DNA of 20,000 nt from an uncultured virus (IMG/VR IMGVR_UViG_3300042554_000984) (lineage: Duplodnaviria > Heunggongvirae > Uroviricota > Caudoviricetes > Kyanoviridae). Below the pieces are notes generated by a model. It saw only the letters and a program-made list of their open reading frames with translations, did not search any database and was not told the DNA's origin. The position numbers and the translations under genes were made by a program. Where the stretch lies: positions 54,550 through 74,549 of the IMG/VR virus record IMGVR_UViG_3300042554_000984. One strand, given 5' to 3'. Positions 2 through 16,876 of the stretch are shown here, one piece after another; the first letter of the stretch is position 1; every line of letters begins with the position of its first letter.

Positions 2-613
2 CTACGCAATCGTGTATCCCTTATGACCAAGGAAGAGAAGGCTGCATATCCAAGCAACTTCTATGCTCTTGCATGGAAATTCAAGAAACTCCTTGAGACA
101 GCCAAGACTCCAACCGAGATTGCCAAGGCCATCGTCGCTCTCTACGACATCCGCGAGAAGACGAAGGAAGACATGGTGAATCCAAAGTCCATCGATGAAG
201 CCGCAAGGATCATCTTCAAGGAAACAAACATCGACCTACAGTCGCTACTTGAAGAGAACCACGATGCCCGTCCGCTTATCGGAAAGTATGAACTAGACGG
301 AAAGCCCGTGTCATTCGAAAAGCCAGTCATGCCGATTGATGAAATCCTTGGATTCCCAATTTACAGAAATGGTGAAGACTTGTTCCTGACTCTTGAGGCA
401 AAGAAGACTAGCAGCGAGGATGGAGCAGCAGCCGTGGCTGTTCCTGCCAACAATGTCGGATCAGGAAACATCGCCGGTGTGTCGCCGGGTCAGGAACCGC
501 CGGGTCCAAAGGGTGGGTTCAAGGCATTGGCCAAGATGAAGAAGAAAAGGATCATGCAACTCAGGAGGGATTCAAAGACCCTCAATGTGATTGCCAAAGA
601 AGACAAGGAGTAA
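2..613 (+). CDS. Hypothetical phage protein, 5'-partial
   Basis: The frame of the 23..613 ORF has no stop back to position 2 (LRNRVSL-MTKEE...), so the gene probably starts upstream. Codon usage matches neighbouring genes. The 'PANNVGSGNIAG' motif resembles hypothetical proteins seen near the primase in T4-like phages (recall, not searched). Confidence 0.75.
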   Translation, partial: LRNRVSLMTKEEKAAYPSNFYALAWKFKKLLETAKTPTEIAKAIVALYDIREKTKEDMVNPKSIDEAARIIFKETNIDLQSLLEENHDARPLIGKYELDGKPVSFEKPVMPIDEILGFPIYRNGEDLFLTLEAKKTSSEDGAAAVAVPANNVGSGNIAGVSPGQEPPGPKGGFKALAKMKKKRIMQLRRDSKTLNVIAKEDKE

Positions 614-616
614 GAC

Positions 617-1507
617 ATGCTTTTTAGATGCTTTGCCGTGGTGTTGGGGGCAACCATCCTATTTGCAAATGGCTGCAAGAGCCTTCCTCCTGTCGAACCT
701 TCCACGGGTGCAGCATCCGCAACCCTCAATTCCGTGGTTGACAGAACCAACGATGAGGTGGCAAACATCAAGCGAGATGCCTTGGAGATCAAGGAAAATA
801 CCAAGAGTGCAATGCTGTCAAAGAGTGGACCAGAGATGGTGTTGGGCAAGATCGACAGCGAGGCAGACGCAATCGTTGCCTCTGCCAATGACATACAGAA
901 GGAAACCGCCAAACTCAAGAAACTCACGGCAGAGGTGACTAAACTTGAAAAGTCCCTGACTACCTTGAGGATTGCCATGGAAGAAGCCAAGGCCGCTGCA
1001 CTTGAACGGCTTTATGGCTACATCACTTTGTTCTGGGTAATCGGCTTCATCTTGATCGCGGCTGGCGCTGCGGTTGCGTTCTTTCTCAACAAGACATATG
1101 GTGGGATGTTGGCGCTCCTAGGTGCCCTGATGCTTGGGTTTGCCTCTGCATCGCATCGCTATCTTGACGAGATCGCCATGGTCGGTGCCATACTTCTTGT
1201 GGCAGGGTTCATCACGGCTGTGGGAATGATTGTCTGGTCAACCATCAACAGCAAGAGAAGCAGCATTGCCGTCAAGGAAATCGTGGAGATGATGCAGATT
1301 CTCAAGGAAACCATGACAGACGATGAGAGAAATCGAATCTTCGGGCCGGATGGGATTGCAAGCAAGGTGCAGTCCGATCTGACCAAGGAGATCATCGCAA
1401 AGGTCAAGGAGAAGAATGGTTTCAAGCGGCTTGAGGAAATCCGCAATGCCATGAAGGAGTCGGAGAAGACAGGAGCAACGGGGGCAGCACCGCCCGAGTC
1501 AAAGTGA
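617..1507 (+). CDS. Predicted lipoprotein with coiled coil and three TM helices (candidate spanin/holin-like envelope protein)
   Basis: RBS AAGGAG at 605-610. Signal peptide MLFRCFAVVLGATILFANG|C with Cys20 at 674-676. Helical heptad-like region at aa ~35-132, hydrophobic segments at aa ~134-157, ~161-179 and ~186-210, then a charged C-terminal tail. Confidence 0.8.
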   Translation: MLFRCFAVVLGATILFANGCKSLPPVEPSTGAASATLNSVVDRTNDEVANIKRDALEIKENTKSAMLSKSGPEMVLGKIDSEADAIVASANDIQKETAKLKKLTAEVTKLEKSLTTLRIAMEEAKAAALERLYGYITLFWVIGFILIAAGAAVAFFLNKTYGGMLALLGALMLGFASASHRYLDEIAMVGAILLVAGFITAVGMIVWSTINSKRSSIAVKEIVEMMQILKETMTDDERNRIFGPDGIASKVQSDLTKEIIAKVKEKNGFKRLEEIRNAMKESEKTGATGAAPPESK

Positions 1508-4228: not shown

Positions 4229-5683
4229 ATGGCCAAATTCCGAGACTTCATAGGCAAGGAACCCGATCCCGAAGGGTTGGAAGAACTGTACAAGGAATTT
4301 CAGGAGTTCATGGAGGCTCCTGAGCCGGATGTAGTCTCGTCTGCAACATCCAAGCAAAAAATCCGAGTAGTGAGGGGTTCACCCGGCCCGAAGGGCGAAA
4401 AGGGTGACAAGGGAGACACCGGCGAACGGGGTCTTCGTGGTTTGCGTGGAATCACAGGCCCAAGGGGCGAAAGAGGTGACCGTGGCGAGAAGGGCGACAA
4501 GGGCGAGCGTGGCGAAAAGGGTCCGCAGGGCGAAAGAGGTCCGCAAGGCGAGGTCGGCCCCCGTGGGGAAAAAGGAAGTGACGGGAAAGCGGGTGCCCAA
4601 GGCACACCTGGACCCCAAGGTCTTCGTGGCGAAAAAGGTGACAAGGGAGACAGAGGAGAAGCAGGGCCGCAAGGACTGAAGGGGGTTGCTGGTCCCAAGG
4701 GGGACAAGGGAGAGAAGGGCGATGTAGGCCCACGGGGTATCGCTGGCCCCAAGGGAGACAAAGGAGATAAGGGCGATAAGGGAGACAAGGGTGAGCCGGG
4801 TCTTCAGGGAATCGCCGGAGTCGCGGGAGCCAAAGGAGAGAAGGGTGCTGTTGGTCCAGTTGGTCCGCAGGGCAAGCGTGGTTCCAAGGGACAAAAGGGT
4901 GACCGTGGAGAAAAGGGCGAGAAGGGTGATGTTGGTCCTGCCGGTCCACAAGGTGAGAAGGGTGCCACGGGAGACTCTGGCGTTCTTCATGCAATCTATC
5001 CACTCAAGTACGATCCCAAGTCAAAGACACTCAAGGTAGACCTTACCAACCTGAATCGCGGAACCACCGTACTGGGCAATCCCGGCGGCGGAATGGGTGA
5101 AGCATTCAAGTTCGTTGAAGTCGCAGGACAGCCCGGTCTTACTGCCATCCAGTATCAGGCAGAGACTCTTCGGTTCGATGCAGGCAACAATGTACAACTG
5201 ATCACCAACCCTGCGACGAACAGCATAACCATATCCTCTTCGGGCACGAACTTCTTCTATCAGCCCGATCCCCCGACATCGGGATTCACCGCCGGTTCAC
5301 GATGGATGGATTCGGATGATGGACAGGAGTACATCTACATCAATGACGGCAACACGCAGCAATGGGTGCAGCCCACGGTGAATCCTGCAATGGTGGTTGC
5401 CGTGACATCGGTAACGGGAAGCACATACCTAGCCACGGGTAGGGATCACTACATCGGTGTCAACGCAACCGGACCCGTGACGATAACTCTTCCTTCCCTG
5501 CCGTTCACGGGAAGGGAAATCATCGTCAAGGATGAGTCGGGTCGGGCAGGAGAGCCTTATCGATACATCACCATAGTCGGTGCAACGGCGGCAGACACGG
5601 TTGACAACCAAGAGTCCGCAACCATCAATCTAAATAACGCAGGACTGCATTTCATATACAACAATGGGTGGAGAATAGTATGA
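4229..5683 (+). CDS. Collagen-like virion fibre protein (charged G-X-Y)
   Basis: About 67 uninterrupted G-X-Y triplets (GEK, GDK, GPQ, GER), then a 'PP...GSRWMDSDDGQEYIY...QWV' module and a beta-rich C-terminal domain ending GWRIV. Confidence 0.88.
   Translation: MAKFRDFIGKEPDPEGLEELYKEFQEFMEAPEPDVVSSATSKQKIRVVRGSPGPKGEKGDKGDTGERGLRGLRGITGPRGERGDRGEKGDKGERGEKGPQGERGPQGEVGPRGEKGSDGKAGAQGTPGPQGLRGEKGDKGDRGEAGPQGLKGVAGPKGDKGEKGDVGPRGIAGPKGDKGDKGDKGDKGEPGLQGIAGVAGAKGEKGAVGPVGPQGKRGSKGQKGDRGEKGEKGDVGPAGPQGEKGATGDSGVLHAIYPLKYDPKSKTLKVDLTNLNRGTTVLGNPGGGMGEAFKFVEVAGQPGLTAIQYQAETLRFDAGNNVQLITNPATNSITISSSGTNFFYQPDPPTSGFTAGSRWMDSDDGQEYIYINDGNTQQWVQPTVNPAMVVAVTSVTGSTYLATGRDHYIGVNATGPVTITLPSLPFTGREIIVKDESGRAGEPYRYITIVGATAADTVDNQESATINLNNAGLHFIYNNGWRIV
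4376..4978 (+). repeat. Coding collagen (G-X-Y)n tract, ~67 triplets
   Basis: Gly at every third residue from aa 50 (GSP) to GDS, counted by hand. Confidence 0.95.
5630..5636 (+). promoter_or_regulatory. Possible internal late promoter CTAAATA
   Basis: Exact motif inside the 3' end of the collagen gene, 43 nt before ATG 5680, which has a GGAG SD at 5670-5673. Confidence 0.5.
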
Positions 5684-6915
5684 GTTACCTTTTCAACGAT
5701 CAAGTGCAATTCAAGGGAAATGCAGTAGATGCCTTCAACCGATTGAAAGTCTCTGCACCTTTCACGCTTTTCGACAGCCAGAATCGCTATCAGATGAACG
5801 ACAAGTGGGACACATTCGGTGCCACCGGAGGTACTGCCACATTCGCAGTACTTGAAAGCGCCATCAACATGACCGTGGGAACAACGGCAGGAAGCAAGGT
5901 CACACGGGAAACCAAGAGGGTGTTCCCCTACCAACCCGGCAAGTCCCTGCTCGTCCTCAACACCTTTGCAATGAACACTCCCAAGGATGGTCTGTTGCAG
6001 CGGGTAGGGTATTTCGGCATCACGGGAGGGGCGACCGCATCCGTTCCCTTCAATGGCATCTACTTGCAGCAAGACGGGCTCACGATGTCCATGTGCTTGG
6101 CTAGTGCGTCACTTGGCAACACAATCACGGTCAATCAGTCAAATTGGAATGGAGACAAGTTCGATGGAAACGGAGAGTCGGGAAGGACTCTTGATCCAAC
6201 CAAGGGAAACATAATGTGGATGGACATTGAATGGCTCGGTGTCGGTGATGTGAGGACAGGGTTCATTGTAGATGGACGGCCAATCGTTGCCCATACATTC
6301 CACAACGACAACCTGAATCCAACGACCTACATGACAACGGCGATATTGCCGATTCGGTATGAACTGATGAATACCAAGGGGCAGACCGGAAGCAGCACGA
6401 TGAAGCAGATATGCTCATCCGTGATAAGCGAGGGTGGATATGAAGGATTCAGCCGCAGACACAATGTCACCCATAACGGAGCAACCCTAAAGACCCTGAC
6501 CACGGCGGGGGTGCAGTATCCGATCATCGCACTTCGACTCAATTCCAATCGGCTCGACAGCGTTGTGGTTCCTTCCAACATCAATGCCGTGATTCAGGAA
6601 ACCAGCAACAACAAGCCCAACACGGCACAGTATCGCATACTGTTCAACCCATCGATAAGCGGCGGTTCATGGGTCACCCACTACAACGGAAATGTTGACT
6701 ACAACAACACAATGGCAAGCATAACTGGTGGAACCGACATCATAGGCGGATACATCAGCAGCAGCGGATCTTTGGTAATATCGGATGTCAATGACTTCAA
6801 TTTCCAAATCGGAAGAACCCAACTTGGAGTTAGCGATGTGATCGTGTTCACCATGACACCAATCTATGATGGTGCAAAGATATGCGCTGACTTCTCTTGG
6901 TTTGAGATCATCTGA
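5680..6915 (+). CDS. Beta-rich hypothetical protein, probably virion-associated
   Basis: Long ORF. ATG 5680 overlaps the upstream TGA (ATGA) and has a GGAG SD, so it is preferred over GTG 5668. Motifs [23 protein letters not shown] and DIEWLGVG recall a conserved hypothetical family of aquatic phages (recall). Confidence 0.82.
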
Positions 6916-8450
6916 TGCCCTTGGACTTTCCGTCGAATCCCTTCCTAAACCAGGTCTATGCTGCCAATGGCAAGGCTTGGCGATGGAACGGAGCCGCATG
7001 GGAGACACACAACGCATCCCTTACGGTTGATTATGTCTCGGACATTAACGGCATATCCGGCAGCGTATCACTCACGGCTGGTGCAAATGTAACCATCACG
7101 AAGTCGGGACAGACCCTGACAATTGCGTCTAGCGGAGGCGGCGGTGGAGGAACAGGAAGCGGCGCAAATGGTGCCACAGGAGCAACAGGTGCTACTGGTC
7201 CTGTGGGTGCCACAGGTCCGCAGGGTGCTACTGGTTCCACGGGTCCGCAGGGTGCCACGGGTACACAAGGCCCAACAGGCCCACAGGGTGCAACGGGTAC
7301 ACAAGGCCCAACAGGCCCACAGGGTGCAACAGGTCCTCAAGGAGAAATTGGCCCTCAAGGCATTCAGGGTGAAAGTTTTTACTTTAGAGGCCCTTACGGT
7401 GGTTCAGAGATTGTTTATAATCTCAATGATGTAGTTACATTCATTGGCAATTCTTATATTTGTTTAACTAATGGTCTTACTGGCTCTCAACCAGATTCTT
7501 TAGTGGGTTGGGATGTATTTGTAGAAAAGGGTTCAACTGGCCCACAGGGTGCAACAGGTCCGCAAGGTGCAACTGGTGCAAATTCAACTGTTCCCGGCCC
7601 AACAGGCCCAACAGGTCTGCAAGGTGCAACGGGCTCACAGGGTGCAACGGGTACACAAGGCCCAACAGGCCCACAGGGTGCAACGGGTACACAAGGATCA
7701 ACAGGCCCACAGGGTGCAACAGGTCCGCAAGGTGCAACGGGCTCACAGGGTGCCACGGGTGCTACAGGAAGAATAGCGTTCACCTATGGTGCAACTGCTC
7801 CATCTTCGCCTCAAATGGGAGATCAATGGCTCAATGAAGTCAATGGAAATCTTTATACTTGGCTGGTCGATGAGGGAGAAGGAACAGGCCAATGGGTCAA
7901 CTACAACACAAGCATCACGACAATAGGTGGCGATGGTGCAACAGGAGTCAACAAATTTACCTACAGTTCTATGGAACCAACTGGTTCCACATCTGGAGAT
8001 GAATGGCTGAATTCTGTTGACGGGAAACTCTACACCTACCTTGTGGATGCAGGCGAAGTGACAGGACAATGGGTAGAACTTTCCGTGATTCCCGATGCCA
8101 TAAACACATCGTTCCGTGGACCATCAGGAAACACCTTGGGACCATTGACATTCTCTCAGCAGGCTACATCCGACTATACGCTTGTCATTGGTGATTCTGC
8201 CAAGACCATAGAGATGGTATATGGTTCTGCCAACACATTGCAGATTCCCTCATACTCCAATGTTGCATTCCCCACGGGTACTCAGATCATGGTCATGCAG
8301 GCTGGGGCAGGGAACACATCATTGACAGGGGCTGCCGGTGTTACCCTGAATTCAAGAAATTCAATGTTTTCTCTGAACGGCCAATGGTCGGTCGTGACTC
8401 TTGTAAATAGGTCAATAGATACTTGGGTCGTACACGGAGACTTGGCCTGA
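6915..8450 (+). CDS. Collagen-like fibre protein (G-X-T/G-P-Q type) with an inserted small domain
   Basis: TGATG coupling to the upstream gene. N-terminal MPLDFPSNP...WRWNGAAW module, two Thr-rich collagen tracts, two 'P...GD(Q/E)WLN...G.LYT.LVD.GE.TGQWV' repeats, and a C-terminal beta domain ending WVVHGDLA. Confidence 0.88.
7161..7775 (+). repeat. Two coding collagen tracts (7161-7376 and ~7530-7775) with 36-bp tandem units
   Basis: The first tract has 24 triplets. The unit ACGGGTACACAAGGCCCAACAGGCCCACAGGGTGCA is tandem at 7257 and 7293. An identical 49-mer occurs at 7282-7330 and 7636-7684. Confidence 0.9.
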
Positions 8451-11400
8451 TGGGAGCAGAAGATATCATCATAAAGTTGAAGCGTGGTGTTTCGGGTGGG
8501 GCAGCACCGACTGGCCTGACCCACGGTGAACTTGCCATAAACACCACGGATGTCCGTCTGTATGTTGGTTCCTTGACTGGCTCGGTTCTGGCGATAAACA
8601 ACAGGTTCTTCACCGGGGCTACCGCTCCCGATTACCCAATCGAAGGAGACAGATGGTACAACGGCACATATGAAAGTGCCTACATCTCTGGTTCTTGGCA
8701 GGCTGTGGGCGGTGGAGGTGGAACTGGATCATTCAATCCTGCAAACTTGCTGATGTTTGTCGCTGGGGCAAGTGGTTCTGGCGGAATTACCTTCTCGGGA
8801 AATTTTACGATCACCAACAATCTTGGTGGAACTACTGAAATTCTAAACGGTCTGACCGTTGTTGGGGGAATCACAGGAAGCATTCTGACCGCAACCCAAC
8901 CAAATATCACCTTGGTGGGAATCCTTTCCTCGCTTACTGCATCGGGGCTGATCTCTGCAAACGCCGGTCTGTCGGCAAGCAACCTGTTTGTTACCAATGG
9001 TGCCACCTTTGGCTCCAACATCTATGCGCCAAACATGGTCACGGGTGTCAATGGAATCACAGGTGCGGTAACCATCACATCCGGTTCCAACATCACGATC
9101 ACTCAGTCGGGCAAACAGATAACAATAGCGGCTGCTGCAACTCCCGCAACTCTTGCCACCTCAAGTGTTACCGGTGTTGCCTCTTTCCGTGCAGCGGACT
9201 TTGATGTATCTGTGACTGGTTCGGTGAGTCTCACGGGAACCGTGGCAAGAACCAATGTTTCTCAGACATTCACCGGATTGCAGACATTTGGTTCCGGCAT
9301 TTCTGGCAACGGCATCACGGGAACTTTGCTGACTTCGACGCAGCCAAACATAACATTGCTTGGTTCGTTGTCTGCGCTTACTGCTGCCAATGTTCAGGTT
9401 TCTGGCGGTGGGCTCAGCGTAACAGGCGGAATCGCGGGAACAATAGTTACGGCTTCTCAACCCAATATTACTGCAATAGGAACTCTATCTTCTTTCAGTA
9501 CGGCAGGACTTACCTCGTTCGAAAGAATCAACATCACCAATGGTGGACTTTCTGCCTCTGGTCCTGTCTTCATTCAGTCCAATGGCCTAAGTGTAACTGG
9601 TGGAATCGCAGGAACCCTGTTGACCGCTGCACAGACCAACATCACATCGGTTGGTGTACTCAACGGATTGTCTGTCAACAACGGACTCAGCGTCACGGGT
9701 TCTCTGGTTGTGACGGGATCAGCAGACATCTTTGGTGGTCTATTCATTGACTCCGGTGGCTTGAGTGTTACTGGCGGCATTGCAGGAACAATAGTCACAC
9801 CATCACAGACCAACATTACATCCGTTGGTGTTCTGAACGGACTTTCTGTTAACAATGGTTTGAGTGTCACGGGTGGAATTAGCGTAACTGGTGGAGTTAG
9901 TGTTGGTGGTGGAGGACTTAGTGTAACTGGCGGAATCGCAGGAACCCTGTTGACTTCTGCACAAACCAACATCACATCAGTTGGAACCTTGTCGAACCTG
10001 ACGGCAACGAATGTTCAAATTTCAAGTGGTGGACTAAGTGTCACGGGTGGCTTGAGTGTGACTGGTGGTGAAACCCTCTTTGGTGGCTCAAGGATTCAAA
10101 GTGGTGGCTTGAGTGTCACGGGAGGCATTGCCGGAACTCTTGTAACTGCTGTACAGACAAACATCACTTCGGTTGGAACCTTGACTTCCTTGTCCACAGC
10201 AGGACTCACTTCCTCTCAGAGGATCAATATCACCAACGGTGGTCTATCGGCAGCAGGACCAATATTCATCCAATCCAATGGCTTGAGTGTGACTGGTGGC
10301 ATTGCGGGAACACTATTGACCGCTGCACAAACCAACATCACATCAGTTGGAACCTTGTCGAACCTGACGGCAACAAATGTTCAAATTTCAAGTGGTGGAC
10401 TGAGCGTCACGGGTGGCTTGAGTGTGACTGGCGGATCTACTCTGTTTGGGGGAGGAACGATACAAAGTGGTGGCTTGAGTGTCACGGGAGGCATTGCCGG
10501 AACTTTGCTCACAGCAGCACAACCCAATATCACATCCGTGGGAACCCTGACTTCACTCAATTCCTCGGGCCTGATCTCTACTACTGCGGGTCTTTCTGGG
10601 AATAGCCTTAATATTGCTGCCGGTGCAACATTCAATGGTGCGGTAAGGATCTTTGGAGACTTGTTGGTGAGTGGTGGAATCACCACGACCGTTAGTGAAA
10701 ATGTCCTGATCGAAGACAACTTCATCGTCCTCAATTCCAACGCAACTGTAGCAGACAGCGGAGGCATAGAAGTTTATCGTGGACCAGCCGCTACTAATCG
10801 TATTCTTAGGTGGAACGAGTCTAGCGGTACATGGCAATACACAAATGATGGAACCACCTATTTCAACATAGCGGCTGCCGGTGCGCTTCCACTAGCATCC
10901 GCTACCGTTACGGGTGTTGCCTCGTTTGGCAATGAGTTTGTCGTATCCGCTCTTGGTGCAGTAAGCCTGACAAGCAATTATGTGCGATCCGTGAATGGTG
11001 TAACAGGTGGTGTTACCGGTGTCGCCTGGAACTTCCTGCCACAGACATTCACAGGGTATCAATCCTTCTCAAGCGGTGTTTCGTCTTCAAACCTCTATGT
11101 CTCCACGGGTGCAACATTTGCCGGTGGAGTAAACATAAGTTCTGGTGGCTTGAGTGTCACGGGAGGAATTGCCGGAACTATCGTAACTCCAAGCCAGACC
11201 AACATCACGACTGTTGGTTCCTTGGTGTCCTTGTCAACGGCAGGACTTACTTCTTCACAGAGAATCAATATCACCAATGGTGGTTTGTCTGCTGCCGGAC
11301 CAGTATTCATCCAATCCAACGGGTTGAGTGTAACTGGCGGAATCGCAGGAACTTTGTTGACAGCGACACAAACAAACATCACATCGGTCGGTGTACTCAA

Positions 11401-14400
11401 CGGACTGTCTGTAAATAATGGCCTGAGTGTCACGGGTTCGATGGTTGTCACGGGATCAGCGGACATCTTTGGTGGTTTGTTTGTTGACTCGGGTGGTTTG
11501 AGCGTAACTGGCGGCATTGCCGGAACTCTTCTAACTGCTGCACAGACCAACATCACTTCGGTTGGAACCTTGACTTCCTTGGCTTCCGCAGGACTCACTT
11601 CCTCTCAGAGGATCAATATCACCAATGGTGGTCTATCGGCAGCAGGACCAGTATTCATCCAATCCAATGGCTTGAGTGTAACTGGCGGCATCGCAGGAAC
11701 CCTGTTGACCGCTGCACAGACCAATATCACTTCGGTCGGTGTACTTAATGGTCTTTCGGTTAACAATGGATTGAGTGTAACTGGTGGAATTTCAATTACG
11801 GGTGGTATTCTTCAATTTGGACCATCAAGGATTGCTGATGGCTTGAGTGTCACAGGTTCGATGGTGGTAACCGGAGGTGCCGACATCTTCGGTGGACTAT
11901 TTGTTGACTCTGGTGGCTTGAGTGTCACAGGTGGGGCAAGCATAACGGGCGGAGAAGCAATCTTTGGCGGATCAAGGATTCAATCGGGTGGCTTGAGTGT
12001 GACTGGCGGGATTGCGGGAACCTTGGTAACGCCATCACAGACCAACATCACGGCTGTGGGTTCCTTGGTGTCTTTGTCAACGGCAGGACTTACCTCGTCC
12101 GAAAGAATCAATATCACAAATGGCGGTATCTCTGCGGCTGGTCCTGTATTCATTCAGTCCAATGGGTTGAGTGTGACTGGTGGCATTGCAGGTATTCTTC
12201 TAACTGCTGCACAGACCAACATCACTTCGGTTGGTGTACTAAACGGTCTATCTGTCAACAATGGTCTTAGCGTTACTGGTGGAGTAAGTATAACAGGAGG
12301 AGAAACGATCTTTGGTGGGTCTAGAATTCAATCAGGTGGATTGAGTGTTACGGGTTCCATGGTTGTTACAGGATCAGCAGACATCTTTGGTGGGTTGTTT
12401 GTTGACTCGGGTGGCTTGAGTGTGACTGGTGGCATCGCTGGAACTCTAGTCACTTCATCACAGACCAACATCACTTCAATCGGAACTTTGACTTCCTTGT
12501 CTACGGCAGGACTTACCTCGTCTGAAAGAGTCAACATTACCAATGGTGGTCTGTCTGCTTCTGGTCCTGTCTTCATCCAATCCAATGGCTTGAGTGTGAC
12601 TGGTGGCATCGCTGGAACTTTGTTGACCGCTGCACAGACCAATATCACGACTGTTGGTTCCTTGGTGTCCTTGTCTACCGCAGGACTCACTTCCTCTCAG
12701 AGGATCAATATCACCAATGGTGGTCTATCGGCAGCAGGACCAGTATTCATCCAATCCAATGGCTTGAGTGTAACTGGCGGAATCGCAGGAACTTTGATCA
12801 CGCCAAGTCAAACGAACATTACTGGCTTGGGTACATTGACTTCACTAAGCACAGCAGGACTTACTTCATCCGAGAGAGTAAACATCACCAATGGTGGTTT
12901 ATCCGCAGCAGGACCAGTATTCATTCAGTCCAACGGTTTGAGTGTAACCGGTGGAATCGCCGGAACTCTTCTAACTCCTGCACAGACCAACATCACATCG
13001 GTCGGTGTACTCAACGGACTGTCTGTAAATAATGGCCTGAGTGTCACGGGTTCCATGGTTGTGACTGGTGGCGAATCAATCTTTGGTGGATCAAGGATAC
13101 AATCTGGTGGATTGAGTGTCACGGGTAGTGCCACAATCACGGGCGGATTGAATGCGTATGGTCAATTGAGTGCTTACAATGGCATCGAAATACTACAATC
13201 GGGGTTGAGGGTAAGTAAAGGAGGAATCGATACCAATCTTGGTGTAACTTTCGGAAATCCCGCATATGGTTTCGGGGATGATCCTGTAATCAATCTGTAT
13301 CGTGGCACCAACGAATTGCTGAGAATAGGTGCAGCCCGTGGTGGAAGTTTCCTAGGTGGACTGAACAATGTGTATGTCTTTGACATCTTGGGTCCAAATG
13401 CCGCACAGACAAGAGCAATCAACTTCAGAAGAGGAACCAACTTTGACGGGGCATCGGCAAGCAACCATGTGACCATCATGTCGTTTGATACGAGCGACAA
13501 TGTAGGCATAAGGACTGCATCTCCGGGTGCTACATTTGATGTAGCGGGAACTCTTCGTGCTAGCGGAATCGGAACATTCACAAGTGGACTGACAACCAAC
13601 AATCTTTATGTCTCCCAAGGAACCACATTTGCAAGTGGTATCAACATTGCTTCGGGAGGCATTAGCGTCACAGGTGGTATCGCTGGAACAATAACCAATC
13701 CATCACAGAACAACATCACGGCTGTGGGTTCCTTGGTATCCTTGTCCACGGCAGGACTTACATCTTCGCAGAGAGTCAACATCACCAATGGTGGTCTGTC
13801 TGCCGGTGGTGGAATATGGGTACAGAGCGGTGGAATAAGCGTCACGGGGGGTATCGCTGGAACCCTGTTGACCGCTGCACAGACCAACATCACATCGGTT
13901 GGTGTACTTAATGGTCTATCTGTAAACAATGGACTCAGCGTGACTGGTGGCATTAGTATCACGGGTGGACTTCTTCAGTTTGGTCCTAGCCGAATTGCAG
14001 ATGGACTTAGCGTTACTGGTGGTGTAAACATTACCGGTGGTGCAAACTTCTTCGGCAACATCATTGCAAATGGTGGAGTCACGGCATATGGCGGTGTATC
14101 GACTCCTAGGATATTGTTTGGCAACACAGGTGCAAATTCCATAAGCGCAATCTATGACTTTGATACCTATGACACCCTCTCCTTTGAGGGATCTGCCGGA
14201 CAACTATTCTCTATTTACAACAACTTGTCCTCGGGAACAATATTCTCCGTAAATGACATTTCGGGAATACCGAGCATAGAGGTAAATGCAGATGGAACTG
14301 TGTTGCTTGCAGGATTTACGGGAAATGTAGGCATCGGCATCACTTCTGCATCTGGAACTGAAAAAGTCCATGTCGGTGGTTCCTTGCGGGTACTGGGTTC

Positions 14401-16876
14401 AGTCAATTCTAGTGGACTGAGTGTCACAGGCTCTGCCATAATCACAGGTGGTGCCGATGTGTTTGGTGGATTGTTTGTTGATTCAGGTGGCTTGAGTGTC
14501 ACGGGAGGTATTGCAGGAACTCTGTTGACTGCTGCACAACCCAACATCACATCAGTTGGTGTACTCAATGGTCTATCTGTAAACAATGGACTCAGCGTTA
14601 CTGGTGGATTAAGTGTAACTGGTGGTTTTGTTCTCTATGGTCCTTTGACTTTGCCAGAAGGGACTCTGAATCTATCCATTATTAATGCATCTAATGCGAT
14701 TTCGATAACGGGAAATCTTTTCATCACGGGTGGCAATCTCACCGCAAATTCATTGTTTGCCAACCGTGCATCATTCTTGCAACCATTGACCATCAGCAAT
14801 GCCGGTGATGTGTCCTCGATTGGGAGCAGAAGCATAACATCTCATCATTTGAACTCCGATGTTCTCTATACGAGATCAATTGTTACAAGCAGCCCAACAG
14901 GAAACATCTACCTTGAAGGTCAAAATGTTTGGGTGAGAAATTCTGTGCTTACCATAACTGGACCGCATGGATTCGGAGCAGGAGCATCCGCTTATGTCTT
15001 GATAGACAGACCCGCTTATATCACGGGAAGTTCCACTCAATCCATTCGTGCCTTGACTTCCAAGGGGAATAACTCCTTTGAAAATGGATACATTTGGTTA
15101 GGAAAGCAAGTAGACATGCCTTGGGATTGGTATTGGGGCTCTCCGTCCTACGGTCTGACATATCCCGGTTCAAATGTCTTTGATGTTGAATGCTATTTGC
15201 CGTCCGAATTCTTCAATACCACGACACATAACTTCAAATCAAGTTGGACAACAAGACTCGCAATAAACAAAGATCGTCCCGAGTCACCCGGTGTCTCTGG
15301 CGGAATAGTTTCTCCAATTCCAAGCGATTACAACATACTGAGACTTACTCAGAGAACAGCACCAACAGGAACCGTTTCTGCCGGACACGGTTTTGTGGCA
15401 CCTTCGGGTCTTTTGAATGTTGGTTACTCTGTATATGGTACAGGTGTGCCTATCATAAGTGATCCCAGATATGATGTTGTCTCTCTTGCGGTAGCAACTA
15501 CTGGCCCAACATCTGTGATCGGTGTAGTTGTTCATACCGGTGGTGTAGAAATTACTGGAAATTCTAGTTTCAATCAGGATTTGACTATTCGAGGAAACCT
15601 CTTCGTATTTGGGTCTTATCCTGGTTCAACTGGTTCTTCTACAGGTGTCACGAGTTTGAACGGGCTTGTTGGTTCCTTGACATTGACTGGTGGAACTGGC
15701 GTTTCGGTAACCTCGGTTGGTACGAACATCTTGAGAATCAGTTTCTCTGGTGCGGGTTCATTCACCGGTGGCATCGAAGTTTATGGCGGTGCCAAAATTC
15801 AATCAGGTGGCATGAGTCTTACTGGCGGTGCATCGATTACTGGTGGCCTAACGGTATATGGCAGTTCGATGATGGCAAACGGTCTGAGTGTGACGGGCGG
15901 AATGTATCTCACGGGAGGAATGACTGCTTACGGTCGATTGAATCTCCAAAGTGGGTTAGATGTCGATAGCGGTTTGGTTAATATTCGAAATGGTTGTGTC
16001 TTTCAGTCATCGATAAATTCTGTTGACTTCTATCCTGATGTCTATTTTACCAGCAACAGCACTATAAGGATGTTGTCTGGAACAAATTTCTTGGGATTGG
16101 GAATCAGCGGCGGTGCAACTGCATACGGTGGAATCAAGATACAGAGCGGTGGATTGAGCGTAACTGGTGGCATGGCGATTACCGGAGCGATTGTTTCGTT
16201 CGGTGGAGTACAGATCAACAGCGGGGGGTTGAGTGTAACTGGTGGAGCAAGAATTCAAGGACTATTGACAGTTACTGGAACAAACTCATTGACCGTGTTT
16301 GGTGGATTCCGTGTTGAAAATGGTGTCAGTATCACAGGCGGAATAGATGTTACTGGTGGTGCAACGGTGTTTGGAACAATCAATGCCGGTAATGGCATTA
16401 GTGTAACTGGCGGAGCAATAGTAACCGGGTCAGCAGACATCTTTGGTGGACTCTTCGTTGACTCTGGTGGCTTGAGTGTCACGGGTGGTGCAAGCATCAC
16501 CGGAAACATCAGGATCAATGCCTCTTCTCTTTCTCCTGTTGGAGCCGCACCTTCGGCAACCGTTCGAGCATGGGTAAACTACAATCAGGCAACTCCTTCG
16601 ACAAGAGGAAGCATGAATGTCTCAAGCGTTTCGGACAATGCAGCAGGTCTTTTCTCGTTGAATTACACCACAAATCTATCAACCACGGGTTATGCTGTTT
16701 CGGCAATAGGAGAAAGAGTGGGTGCCAACGGAACAACATTGGTAGTTCTGCAAAATACCACCAATCCTCTAGGGACAACCGGTGTTGCTTTGCAGACGAT
16801 TGAAAATGCCGGAGGTGCTGGTGTTCCCGGCACAAACACCGATTTAACTTATGTCACCATCATAGTGGTTCAATGA
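8450..16876 (+). CDS. Giant repeat-rich tail or virion fibre protein (~2808 aa)
   Basis: ATG 8450 is coupled to the upstream TGA and has a GGAG SD at 8436-8439, so it is preferred over TTG 8423. N-terminal IKLKRG...GELAINTTDVRLYVG module (Mtd_N-like), many GLSVTG and QTNITSVG repeats, and a C-terminal RAWVNYN...NVSSVSDN domain typical of fibre tips. Confidence 0.9.
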   Translation: MGAEDIIIKLKRGVSGGAAPTGLTHGELAINTTDVRLYVGSLTGSVLAINNRFFTGATAPDYPIEGDRWYNGTYESAYISGSWQAVGGGGGTGSFNPANLLMFVAGASGSGGITFSGNFTITNNLGGTTEILNGLTVVGGITGSILTATQPNITLVGILSSLTASGLISANAGLSASNLFVTNGATFGSNIYAPNMVTGVNGITGAVTITSGSNITITQSGKQITIAAAATPATLATSSVTGVASFRAADFDVSVTGSVSLTGTVARTNVSQTFTGLQTFGSGISGNGITGTLLTSTQPNITLLGSLSALTAANVQVSGGGLSVTGGIAGTIVTASQPNITAIGTLSSFSTAGLTSFERINITNGGLSASGPVFIQSNGLSVTGGIAGTLLTAAQTNITSVGVLNGLSVNNGLSVTGSLVVTGSADIFGGLFIDSGGLSVTGGIAGTIVTPSQTNITSVGVLNGLSVNNGLSVTGGISVTGGVSVGGGGLSVTGGIAGTLLTSAQTNITSVGTLSNLTATNVQISSGGLSVTGGLSVTGGETLFGGSRIQSGGLSVTGGIAGTLVTAVQTNITSVGTLTSLSTAGLTSSQRINITNGGLSAAGPIFIQSNGLSVTGGIAGTLLTAAQTNITSVGTLSNLTATNVQISSGGLSVTGGLSVTGGSTLFGGGTIQSGGLSVTGGIAGTLLTAAQPNITSVGTLTSLNSSGLISTTAGLSGNSLNIAAGATFNGAVRIFGDLLVSGGITTTVSENVLIEDNFIVLNSNATVADSGGIEVYRGPAATNRILRWNESSGTWQYTNDGTTYFNIAAAGALPLASATVTGVASFGNEFVVSALGAVSLTSNYVRSVNGVTGGVTGVAWNFLPQTFTGYQSFSSGVSSSNLYVSTGATFAGGVNISSGGLSVTGGIAGTIVTPSQTNITTVGSLVSLSTAGLTSSQRINITNGGLSAAGPVFIQSNGLSVTGGIAGTLLTATQTNITSVGVLNGLSVNNGLSVTGSMVVTGSADIFGGLFVDSGGLSVTGGIAGTLLTAAQTNITSVGTLTSLASAGLTSSQRINITNGGLSAAGPVFIQSNGLSVTGGIAGTLLTAAQTNITSVGVLNGLSVNNGLSVTGGISITGGILQFGPSRIADGLSVTGSMVVTGGADIFGGLFVDSGGLSVTGGASITGGEAIFGGSRIQSGGLSVTGGIAGTLVTPSQTNITAVGSLVSLSTAGLTSSERINITNGGISAAGPVFIQSNGLSVTGGIAGILLTAAQTNITSVGVLNGLSVNNGLSVTGGVSITGGETIFGGSRIQSGGLSVTGSMVVTGSADIFGGLFVDSGGLSVTGGIAGTLVTSSQTNITSIGTLTSLSTAGLTSSERVNITNGGLSASGPVFIQSNGLSVTGGIAGTLLTAAQTNITTVGSLVSLSTAGLTSSQRINITNGGLSAAGPVFIQSNGLSVTGGIAGTLITPSQTNITGLGTLTSLSTAGLTSSERVNITNGGLSAAGPVFIQSNGLSVTGGIAGTLLTPAQTNITSVGVLNGLSVNNGLSVTGSMVVTGGESIFGGSRIQSGGLSVTGSATITGGLNAYGQLSAYNGIEILQSGLRVSKGGIDTNLGVTFGNPAYGFGDDPVINLYRGTNELLRIGAARGGSFLGGLNNVYVFDILGPNAAQTRAINFRRGTNFDGASASNHVTIMSFDTSDNVGIRTASPGATFDVAGTLRASGIGTFTSGLTTNNLYVSQGTTFASGINIASGGISVTGGIAGTITNPSQNNITAVGSLVSLSTAGLTSSQRVNITNGGLSAGGGIWVQSGGISVTGGIAGTLLTAAQTNITSVGVLNGLSVNNGLSVTGGISITGGLLQFGPSRIADGLSVTGGVNITGGANFFGNIIANGGVTAYGGVSTPRILFGNTGANSISAIYDFDTYDTLSFEGSAGQLFSIYNNLSSGTIFSVNDISGIPSIEVNADGTVLLAGFTGNVGIGITSASGTEKVHVGGSLRVLGSVNSSGLSVTGSAIITGGADVFGGLFVDSGGLSVTGGIAGTLLTAAQPNITSVGVLNGLSVNNGLSVTGGLSVTGGFVLYGPLTLPEGTLNLSIINASNAISITGNLFITGGNLTANSLFANRASFLQPLTISNAGDVSSIGSRSITSHHLNSDVLYTRSIVTSSPTGNIYLEGQNVWVRNSVLTITGPHGFGAGASAYVLIDRPAYITGSSTQSIRALTSKGNNSFENGYIWLGKQVDMPWDWYWGSPSYGLTYPGSNVFDVECYLPSEFFNTTTHNFKSSWTTRLAINKDRPESPGVSGGIVSPIPSDYNILRLTQRTAPTGTVSAGHGFVAPSGLLNVGYSVYGTGVPIISDPRYDVVSLAVATTGPTSVIGVVVHTGGVEITGNSSFNQDLTIRGNLFVFGSYPGSTGSSTGVTSLNGLVGSLTLTGGTGVSVTSVGTNILRISFSGAGSFTGGIEVYGGAKIQSGGMSLTGGASITGGLTVYGSSMMANGLSVTGGMYLTGGMTAYGRLNLQSGLDVDSGLVNIRNGCVFQSSINSVDFYPDVYFTSNSTIRMLSGTNFLGLGISGGATAYGGIKIQSGGLSVTGGMAITGAIVSFGGVQINSGGLSVTGGARIQGLLTVTGTNSLTVFGGFRVENGVSITGGIDVTGGATVFGTINAGNGISVTGGAIVTGSADIFGGLFVDSGGLSVTGGASITGNIRINASSLSPVGAAPSATVRAWVNYNQATPSTRGSMNVSSVSDNAAGLFSLNYTTNLSTTGYAVSAIGERVGANGTTLVVLQNTTNPLGTTGVALQTIENAGGAGVPGTNTDLTYVTIIVVQ
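9310..14630 (+). repeat. Dispersed coding repeats of the giant fibre
   Basis: Many near-identical DNA blocks. 11586-11688 equals 12678-12780 (103 nt identical). 9957-10065 and 10323-10431 differ at 3 synonymous positions. Confidence 0.9.

Follow-up and report, generated by a model that had tools for sequence, protein, structure and literature searches.

Among described systems, the spanins are the closest to the gene analyzed here. As set out in those parts of the spanin survey PMC6139136 on which we draw, the definition of a unimolecular spanin (u-spanin) requires one C-terminal transmembrane domain (TMD). The prototype, T1 gp11, has a periplasmic domain that is mainly beta and a gene in the lysis cassette, and all 58 u-spanins lack a periplasmic Cys. 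The same parts describe Rz1 as a lipid plus a Pro-rich region and Rz as CC1-linker-CC2 (PMC6139136). The DNA analyzed was a 20,000-nucleotide stretch (the window) from an uncultured virus, corresponding to positions 54,550 to 74,549 of IMG/VR record IMGVR_UViG_3300042554_000984. The 74.5-kb viral contig G000, whose terminal 20 kb make up the window, is that of a T4-like myophage according to PHROG and Pfam scans. The gene at 617..1507 of the window (+ strand; from the list of open reading frames, ORFs) encodes a 296-residue product, hereafter the target, which is predicted to belong to an uncharacterized family of phage envelope proteins. Based on its sequence and on structural models, we tentatively propose, with less than even confidence, that the target may be a spanin-like lysis protein that bridges the envelope and represents a new type, helical and with several transmembrane (TM) helices. 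We know of no holin or spanin described for aquatic T4-like phages generally, although the literature was not searched specifically for this.

Lipidation site, predicted fold and family

The signal, lipobox and TM assignments rest on hydropathy, motif and an AlphaFold2 (AF2) model. The putative signal peptide (residues 1-19, MLFRCFAVVLGATILFANG; 617..673, + strand) was assigned from the translation, hydropathy and the N-termini of homologs; it is hydrophobic and contains an Arg at position 4. It leads into the lipobox A-N-G-C, in which Cys20 (codon 674..676, + strand) is the predicted lipidation site and Lys21 occupies the +2 position. A Pro-rich, lipid-proximal linker follows (residues 21-30, KSLPPVEPST; 677..706, + strand), in which predicted local distance difference test (pLDDT) values are low for residues 21-23; the first helix begins at residue 31. 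Pro-rich stretches follow the Cys in homologs too. The mature target has no further Cys after C20, as judged from the translation. The Asn at −2 of the lipobox is unusual. An LNGC lipobox is functional in the outer-membrane spanin (o-spanin) gp141.1 of phiKZ, according to the relevant part of PMC12894885, and LNGC is among the o-spanin lipobox variants listed in PMC6139136.

The lipobox Cys is kept across close and distant homologs. It is invariant in the aligned close homologs (52/52). Of the 120 homologs listed, 107 contain a hydrophobic stretch ending in [AGS]C, the 13 exceptions being mostly cut at the N-terminus; one homolog, P0063, has Ser in place of the Cys. The Cys was also found in 79 of 80 viral loci: 75 using a regular expression and four (...QPGGC) by eye. 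Locus L048, with only 180 bases 5' of its match, was left out of this count. More distantly, 109 of 121 representatives of at least 250 residues have the Cys, and only three columns, that of the Cys included, are invariant in the 51 members compared at 20-30% identity. At +2, the 107 close homologs variously have K, N, S, A, R, P, T, E, Q, G or C; none has Asp. At the level of the motif, the target has the outer-membrane lipoprotein signal with a non-Asp +2 residue that serves as a u-spanin criterion.

The AF2 model was built on a 52-sequence alignment and had a mean pLDDT of 75.8. It contains helices at residues 31-68, 73-156, 159-181 and 186-232, followed by short C-terminal helices, and has no strands in the periplasmic part. 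The predicted periplasmic domain comprises 113 residues: the 10-residue linker, a 38-residue helix (helix 1, residues 31-68; 707..820, + strand; AF2), a four-residue tip (residues 69-72; 821..832, + strand) and a 61-residue helix (helix 2, residues 73-133; 833..1015, + strand; AF2) whose heptad coiled coil continues into the first TM helix (TM1). The tip was assigned from the AF2 helix break and from homolog insertions of up to ~45 residues; insertions and deletions across homologs cluster here, between the two periplasmic helices (alignment A1, columns 101-145). The a/d heptad pattern at residues 90-117 was equalled by only 1 of 2000 shuffles. Three TM helices are predicted at residues ~134-156, 159-181 and 186-210 (1016..1246, + strand) based on AF2, hydropathy and invariant Gly, Phe, Ala and Tyr residues. 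They are rich in small residues, including the invariant Gly and Ala. An N-out/C-in topology is predicted for these helices, as K159 in loop 1 and the SKRSS sequence after TM3 fit it.

Residues 211-272 (1247..1432, + strand) form a predicted cytoplasmic helical domain, assigned from conservation and AF2, with the motif EIVEM..ILKE...ER.RIFG..G.AS.VQSD.TK...K.KNGF. When residues 206-272 were modelled alone using AF2, the pLDDT was 85.9 and the predicted template modelling score (pTM) was 0.67. Residues 273-296 and the stop codon (1433..1507, + strand) make up a variable tail of low identity, in which the pLDDT falls below 50 at residues 286-291. Conservation differs between these parts, with mean column identities of 0.49 for helix 1, 0.55 for helix 2, 0.74 for the TM region, 0.79 for the cytoplasmic domain and 0.26 for the tail. 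Overall, identity is about 70% for the membrane and cytoplasmic parts, against about 41% for the periplasmic coil. An earlier note on this DNA, made from the letters alone, had described a lipoprotein-type signal with C20 and Lys at +2, a coiled-coil-like segment of ~110 residues, three TM helices and a charged tail. The signal stands on the motif and the invariant Cys, the coiled coil on the AF2 helices and the heptad test, and the odd number of TM helices on AF2 and hydropathy. The tail had to be redrawn: only residues 273-296 are a variable tail, residues 212-272 are part of the folded, conserved domain, and residues 212-296 together have a net charge of +2.

Structural searches gave no named relative. 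Foldseek searches of the full model against the PDB and BFVD returned nothing at E ≤ 0.001, and the top BFVD rows were unnamed proteins of uncultured phages. For the cytoplasmic-domain model, Foldseek against the PDB likewise returned nothing at E ≤ 0.001, and the highest Z in a wide VIA-align comparison was 6.1, among matches that were generic and helical. The ESM Atlas returned only the target's own viral clusters; the structural neighbors were helical hairpins (MCP, AprE) with TM-scores <0.5.

We also evaluated a two-copy prediction. The score was 0.42, versus 0.00 for the best of three controls. Of proteins solved as same-chain pairs, 20 of 30 attained the mark used for this score, compared with 1 of 23 that were solved as single chains. 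The dimer runs had a contact agreement of at least 43% and a partner pLDDT of at least 59. This prediction supports, short of proving, dimerization of the target. In the model, symmetric dimer contacts occur at residues 44, 51, 58, 79, 86, 93, 100, 107, 110, 114 and 117. Helices 1 and 2 make antiparallel contacts: 51 with 86-93, 58 with 79-86, 44 with 93, and 62 with 79. The predicted assembly is a dimer of hairpins that forms a four-helix bundle atop a two-stranded stalk, in which the N-terminal end of the hairpin lies near residue 107 of helix 2, ~25 residues above TM1. The computed length of the N-terminal arm is ~87 Å (10 extended and 38 helical residues) and that of the C-terminal arm is ~91 Å (61 helical residues). 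Given these similar lengths, both anchors would be at one end of the hairpin. By arithmetic, the fully opened chain, with the helices and linkers extended, would span ~195 Å.

The target has many relatives. A word-indexed search (7,999 scored candidates) returned 148 proteins at E ≤ 0.001, none with an informative name. Using a profile of the TM and cytoplasmic core, 322 representative clusters (50% identity) were found at E ≤ 0.001 among 1.84 billion proteins, and 106 of these scored ≤1e-10. Nearly all of the best 150 of the 322 representatives have lengths of 215-410 residues, the core occupying their C-terminal half. The ESM Atlas viral clusters containing the target have 182, 106 and 117 members. 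Five long viral records (G001-G005) carry one family copy each. In contrast to uncultured phages, cultured phages yielded no match when four members were compared by tblastn with 50,697 records. Among 185,579 prokaryote species genomes (one per species), the one relative was on a 3-kb phage-like contig of a Bacteroidetes metagenome-assembled genome. Of the single distant queries, P0150 and P0240 gave one related locus each, and P0217 and P0178 gave none. Members were thus found only on contigs of uncultured phages, most of them T4-like, and the family matches nothing in Pfam, PHROG or NCBIfam or by fold.

Pfam, PHROG and NCBIfam scans of the target returned only sub-threshold coiled-coil and membrane noise. 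The best rows were AAA_13 (E 1.3e-4; 21 bits vs a cut-off of 36) and DUF2207_C (18 bits vs 33). The best rows of the PHROG lysis category were a 'hemolysin' (phrog_1193, E 0.13) and an 'Rz-like spanin' (phrog_7584, E 1.1). Holin families were missing from the Pfam and PHROG results up to E 10 and from those of NCBIfam at E ≤ 0.01. Among the papers returned by searches on u-spanins, exclusion lipoproteins, holins and cyanophage lysis, including parts of PMC6139136 other than its spanin-database tables, none described a phage lipoprotein combining a coiled coil with three TM helices. Two other identities were considered for the ORF and rejected: a chance reading frame, given at least 148 homologs and a Shine-Dalgarno (SD) sequence, and a virion or tail protein, given the lipoprotein signal and the lack of a structural-family match.

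Lysis genes and the case for envelope bridging

The record G001 (177,364 bp; CheckV 98% complete) served as the whole-genome stand-in for G000, with which it shares 99.99% identity across the 74.5 kb in common. For the lysis inventory, 199 G001/G000 ORFs (11 + 75 + 113) were compared with PHROGs and 125 with Pfam. Neither scan revealed a holin, spanin or endolysin family, none of the 199 ORFs matched the PHROG lysis category, and the gp5-like hub was matched via its OB domain only. Pfam did reveal a 139-residue lysozyme of the Destabilase family (i-type; 46.2 bits vs a cut-off of 26.2) with an N-terminal hydrophobic signal or a segment resembling a signal-arrest-release (SAR) sequence. Its gene is outside the window, at G000 26199-26618 (= G001 128926-129345), between dUTPase-side genes and speD. 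Destabilase was above the Pfam cut-off in all five family-carrying genomes, and each of the four Destabilase ORFs inspected from these genomes has a signal-like N-terminus. Among cultured phages, relatives of this lysozyme occur in only seven Cellulophaga phage records. The Destabilase-type protein is likely the endolysin of this phage group.

Other lysis genes were sought in the same five genomes. Neither T4-type lysozyme (PF00959) nor Rz (PF03245) was detected in any of them (0/5 each); the Rz control was positive in E. coli. The Phage_holin_T search gave no match in the genomes and none in the controls either. Within G001, no small o-spanin-like lipoprotein ORF was found. Three small TM ORFs of G001 could be holins; they encode 127 (2 TM), 80 and 76 residues.

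Based on these data, the proposed function would proceed as follows. The target would be exported via Sec and then lipidated at Cys20. The lipid anchor would be sorted to the outer membrane, as suggested by the +2 Lys of the target and the lack of Asp at this position in close homologs. Anchoring in the outer membrane is further suggested by the invariance of a Cys whose lipid would be redundant beside three TM helices but essential for holding on to the outer membrane. In this state, the protein would span the periplasm, extended to ~195 Å. Once the exported Destabilase-type lysozyme had degraded the cell wall, collapse into the hairpin would draw both membranes together and breach the outer membrane, as proposed for spanins. 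The module made up of the three TM helices plus the cytoplasmic domain would serve as an anchor, and probably as a regulator or timer of the membrane step.

The support for the spanin-like half of this proposal is indirect. It comprises the invariant lipidation site, the Pro-rich linker, the Rz-like two-helix layout and the placement of both anchors at one end. It also comprises the narrow range of periplasmic lengths, the adjacency of a family member to a lysozyme gene in one viral contig (L099, described below), the conserved 2-TM ORF after the gene in nine of 67 loci, the lack of a periplasmic Cys, the conserved lysozyme candidate with its export signal and the lack of any other recognized spanin. 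Specifically, 208 of 230 members have 100-159 residues between the Cys and TM1, and eight have at least 160; the median is 131. The earlier note had suggested that the target tethers both membranes like a u-spanin, and had proposed checks of it. Their outcomes agree with the suggestion in part: the Cys is conserved, the profile scans gave no match to an unrelated characterized family (Pfam, PHROG, NCBIfam), the oligomer prediction yielded a dimer, and no canonical holin or spanin was recognized in G001. The lipidation site, the layout and the hairpin lend tethering indirect support; assignment to the u-spanins as defined did not survive.

Several observations weigh against envelope bridging. 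First, the target has three TMDs and 86 cytoplasmic residues, not the one C-terminal TMD of T1 gp11, and its periplasmic part is an all-alpha coiled coil, not mainly beta. Second, the TMD of known spanins is merely an anchor, and a pure spanin does not explain the conservation peak in the TM and cytoplasmic parts of the target. Third, the predicted geometry fits a static hairpin in the inner membrane and a collapsing bridge equally well. Fourth, the Cys-to-TM1 distance is <80 residues in 11 of 230 members; if helical, these would be too short to bridge the periplasm. Fifth, Asp occurs at +2 in five distant members, and, should the hosts be planctomycetes, the sorting rules and periplasm widths of E. 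coli may not hold. Sixth, the target lies at the end of a replication-module unit, 29 kb from the sole lysozyme candidate; over the 67 distinct loci used for neighbor counts, only one has a nearby lysozyme gene, and no lysis gene is a consistent neighbor. Finally, the lack of an alternative spanin is weak evidence, since ~13% of the phages surveyed have no identifiable spanin, as stated in the parts of PMC6139136 used here.

Gene neighborhoods and alternative functions

The target gene is preceded by the SD sequence AAGGAG (605..610, + strand; read from the sequence), six bases 5' of the ATG. The TAA stop codon of the preceding ORF (611-613) falls within the SD-ATG spacer, so the target is tightly coupled to the upstream gene. 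The target is the final gene of a same-strand unit at the end of the replication module, directly 5' of primase. This module of G000 includes the clamp, clamp loader, RegA, DNA polymerase, UvsX and helicase genes; the order then continues with DUF7207, a charged protein, the target, primase, ThyX, collagen-like fibre proteins and a 2817-residue giant. The exact T4 late-promoter motif TATAAATA has only two copies in G001, neither close to the target. Upstream of the target's unit, NATAAATA was not found.

The most serious alternative to envelope bridging, which we rate as only slightly less probable, is that the target is a dimeric hairpin resident in the inner membrane. The lipid and the TM helices would share this membrane, the bundle would project ~95 Å into the periplasm, and the protein would act during infection. 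Its role could be superinfection exclusion, envelope remodelling, or that of a scaffold, inhibitor or regulator of exported enzymes, namely the secreted lysozyme, a DegS-like lipoprotein protease and a subtilase that carries a dockerin. A partner in the cytoplasm would be engaged through the conserved cytoplasmic domain. Both structure predictions favor the closed hairpin, and the 10-residue linker could just reach the inner membrane. The peak of conservation in the TM and cytoplasmic parts suggests specific partners there, and the 11 short members and the five with Asp at +2 fit such a location. The position in an early-type replication module before primase also fits; the T4 exclusion gene sp is presumably at a similar position. 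On the other side of the balance, the invariant lipidated Cys seems redundant with three TM helices in one membrane, none of 107 close homologs has Asp at +2, and the PHROG and Pfam comparisons gave no similarity to known exclusion proteins.

The gene neighborhoods bear on this alternative through the exported proteases. DUF7207 is upstream of the target homolog in 24 of the 67 loci, a convergent trypsin-like lipoprotein gene is ≤3 kb downstream in 22, and an S8 subtilase gene ends 27-72 bases upstream in 9. A conserved, convergent 2-TM ORF of 70-89 residues is 28-1484 bases downstream in nine loci (within 117 bases in seven), and primase is downstream in five. One or other of the exported serine proteases adjoins the target in 31 of 67 loci, and in 14 of the 35 with at least 3 kb on both sides. 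This association favors a hairpin in the inner membrane that acts on exported enzymes. All three trypsin-like lipoproteins tested were above the Pfam Trypsin cut-off. In G001, the two proteases are encoded side by side, 33 kb from the target and outside the window (G000 19690-22000 = G001 122417-124663): a 265-residue lipoprotein with a DegS/DegP-like trypsin domain and a 468-residue S8 subtilase. One of the two exact TATAAATA motifs of G001 precedes the DegS-like protease gene. This protease matched TIGR02037 (E 1.3e-17) and TIGR02038 (E 3.9e-14), both far below the curated cut-offs. In the phage collection it matched only genes annotated degS/DegS, of which two are in records labelled Acinetobacter phage and the third is in a Salmonella enterica record. 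A GC-type dockerin (34.3 bits vs a cut-off of 29) forms the C-terminal end of the subtilase. Cohesin and dockerin modules are reported for freshwater Nemodlikiaceae in the part of PMC6461901 considered here.

The exported proteases are not obligatory partners of the target, which weighs against the inner-membrane alternative. Among the five long records, the trypsin-like gene occurs in G001, G002 and G005 (the last via locus L076). The S8 protease domain occurs in G001 only; G002 and G003 match just the dockerin-bearing C-terminal end. Neither a trypsin-like nor an S8 protease domain was found in G003 or G004, both 100% complete.

The remaining neighborhoods point to movement of the gene. The closest relatives of the target (50-73% identity) have none of the tested window neighbor genes in common with it; where their loci are annotated, they follow capsid and tail-tube genes or are near ribonucleotide reductase and GroES genes. 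In the syntenic loci L037-L041 (among loci L005-L041 compared), the primase is 81-84% and DUF7207 79-82% identical, and the target is only 45-48% identical. This mismatch between the histories of the target and its neighbors suggests allele replacement or gene movement between T4-like phages. In S-CREM2 and Melnitz, there is no counterpart of the target beside primase; gp160 of S-CREM2 is a soluble charged protein. The small 2-TM ORF occurs at L014:6886-7575 and in eight further loci, and a DUF7717 protein (136 residues in L014) follows it in 11 listed loci. No homolog of this ORF was found in G001.

It is distinctly improbable that the target is a holin- or antiholin-type lysis timer, including the fused holin-spanin that the earlier note had envisaged. 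The TM helices would permeabilize or depolarize the inner membrane, regulated by the hairpin and the cytoplasmic domain. Class I holins are ~100 residues long; the T4 holin T has a large periplasmic domain and regulators. The three small-residue-rich helices with invariant Gly and Ala, the class-I-like predicted topology and the well-conserved membrane core fit an effector of this kind. G001 encodes no other recognizable holin, and its candidate endolysin, exported via a signal- or SAR-like segment, would need just a depolarizing trigger. The fused holin module is nonetheless not borne out beyond TM count and topology: Pfam and PHROGs gave no holin family match, the protein has 296 residues, ~3x the size of a holin, and its C-terminus is folded, conserved and nearly neutral, not a basic tail. 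The target does not adjoin the lysozyme gene, and G001 has the other small TM ORFs noted above.

One locus contains a possible lysis cluster and a separate 3-TM ORF. In L099 (a 124-kb viral contig with 34% GC; 6415-8969), a PF00959 lysozyme gene is divergent from a three-gene unit consisting of a 122-residue ORF, a 117-residue 3-TM ORF and a distant target homolog, the last 740 bases from the lysozyme gene. The lysozyme has an N-terminal TM segment and an E-x8-D-x5-T triad. This arrangement may be a lysis cluster. The adjacency could also be chance, as about eight types of context were looked at. The separate 3-TM ORF beside the homolog argues against a holin function for the latter; it has no similarity to the 127-residue 2-TM ORF of G001 (E 0.37).

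A further proposal, made by analogy and a long shot, extends envelope bridging to a new class of single-chain, spring-loaded envelope fusogens with which uncultured T4-like phages would achieve lysis. Such a protein would combine an outer-membrane lipid, a coiled-coil hairpin collapsing in the manner of a class I viral fusion protein and a TM/cytoplasmic module that senses a trigger, such as loss of membrane potential, or itself acts as a holin; in many lineages, a trypsin-like or subtilisin-like protease exported by the phage would prime it by cutting the variable tip, yielding a two-piece spanin. Finally, it is very unlikely that the target is a signalling substrate in which a DegS-like protease of the phage or host cuts the hairpin and frees or activates the cytoplasmic domain: the RseA/DegS anti-sigma pathway is a precedent for proteolysis-gated signalling, the sub-threshold DegP/DegS-type matches, the degS annotations, the nearby protease in 22 of 67 loci and the small, folded, highly conserved cytoplasmic domain are in keeping with it, but that domain resembles neither anti-sigma nor DNA-binding domains in fold or sequence, G003 and G004 have no detectable trypsin-like gene, and the invariant lipid anchor is left unexplained.

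Other features of the window and of the related genomes were observed. A sigma-70-like site (TTGACT-16 bases-TATACT; 10/12 matches) is present 5' of primase at 1631-1658. The region has two such sites, versus 1.2 ± 1.2 in shuffles, which is a weak hint only. Because this site is just before the ATG at 1661, the primase more likely starts there, and the longer TTG-initiated ORF from 1625 is probably mis-started. Collagen-repeat (PF01391) tail-fibre-like proteins are encoded at 4229-5683 and 6915-8450, flanking a 415-residue virion structural protein (phrog_1645). The giant 2817-residue ORF (8423-16876) has weak tail-fibre-like matches at its C-terminus only, and its DNA contains internal repeats of ~210-330 bases with 81-91% identity (BLAST); the copy in the sister record encodes 2841 residues. 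At G000 27707-29407 (L003:8707-10404), a DNA methyltransferase is seemingly split into a 71-residue N-terminal piece and a 314-residue piece with an HNH endonuclease ORF between them, which looks like a homing-endonuclease or intron insertion. Two regions of G001, 11981-14708 and 102469-103185, encode lipopolysaccharide (LPS)-heptose functions (a PfkB-type kinase, an adenylyltransferase and a phosphoheptose isomerase-like protein) together with an epimerase, a sulfotransferase, an RCC1-repeat protein and a PAP2 phosphatase. These genes suggest remodelling of the surface of a diderm host, and the LPS-heptose and PAP2 genes fit such a host.

Comparison with known systems

The family is widespread (322 clusters), mobile between genome positions and lineages, and has an invariant lipidation site. 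No holin or spanin was recognized in the five long genomes, and the family is a testable candidate for the outer-membrane step or for lysis control. If the target bridges the envelope, the spanin concept would extend to alpha-helical, multi-TM, single-chain proteins, and spanin-finding rules that require one C-terminal TMD would overlook such proteins. If it does not, the target would nonetheless represent a phage envelope protein that is under strong constraint, has not been described before and contains a conserved cytoplasmic domain.

The more remote comparisons are with fusion proteins and a host lipoprotein. By analogy, the hairpin of class I viral fusion proteins, like that predicted for the target, brings an N-terminal membrane element and a C-terminal TM anchor together, and trypsin-like or subtilisin-like proteases are encoded near the target in some loci. 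The target differs from these proteins in being a predicted dimer, not a trimer, in having a lipid in place of a fusion peptide, and in lacking homology; moreover, the proteases are absent from two complete family-carrying genomes. Braun lipoprotein Lpp (NF011925) likewise has a lipoprotein signal followed by a coiled coil and weakly matched residues 7-61 (E 0.0029, 17.8 bits). This score is far under the 108-bit cut-off, and Lpp is a host protein without TM helices or a cytoplasmic domain. The resemblance to the class I holin lambda S105 lies in the three TM helices and the predicted N-out/C-in topology. Unlike S105, the target is ~3x larger, has a 113-residue lipid-anchored periplasmic domain and a folded, conserved, nearly neutral C-terminus, matches no holin family, and is not encoded beside an endolysin gene.

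Two-component spanins are closer. Like lambda Rz/Rz1 (and T4 PseT.3/PseT.2), the target combines a lipid anchor and a Pro-rich segment with two linker-joined periplasmic helices; it is a predicted homodimer, and its predicted fold fits the hairpin collapse proposed for Rz/Rz1. The target differs in being one chain in which the helical part is in reverse order relative to the TMD, in lacking cysteines for intermolecular disulfides, and in having extra TM helices and a cytoplasmic domain. Compared with an Rz-like inner-membrane spanin (i-spanin), the two-helix periplasmic part precedes the TMDs, and G001 encodes no partner o-spanin-like ORF. As for T1 gp11, beyond the number of TMDs and the fold considered above, the target is longer at 296 residues, is encoded outside a lysis cassette and has no sequence similarity to it. 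Like T1 gp11, the target is a single chain with an N-terminal lipoprotein signal (non-Asp +2) and inner-membrane helices. Like u-spanins in general, it has no periplasmic Cys, and its genome resembles u-spanin genomes in encoding a signal- or SAR-type lysozyme candidate and no two-component spanin. By this analogy, if the target does bridge the envelope, it would be a functional analogue of a u-spanin, of a new alpha-helical, multi-TM kind.

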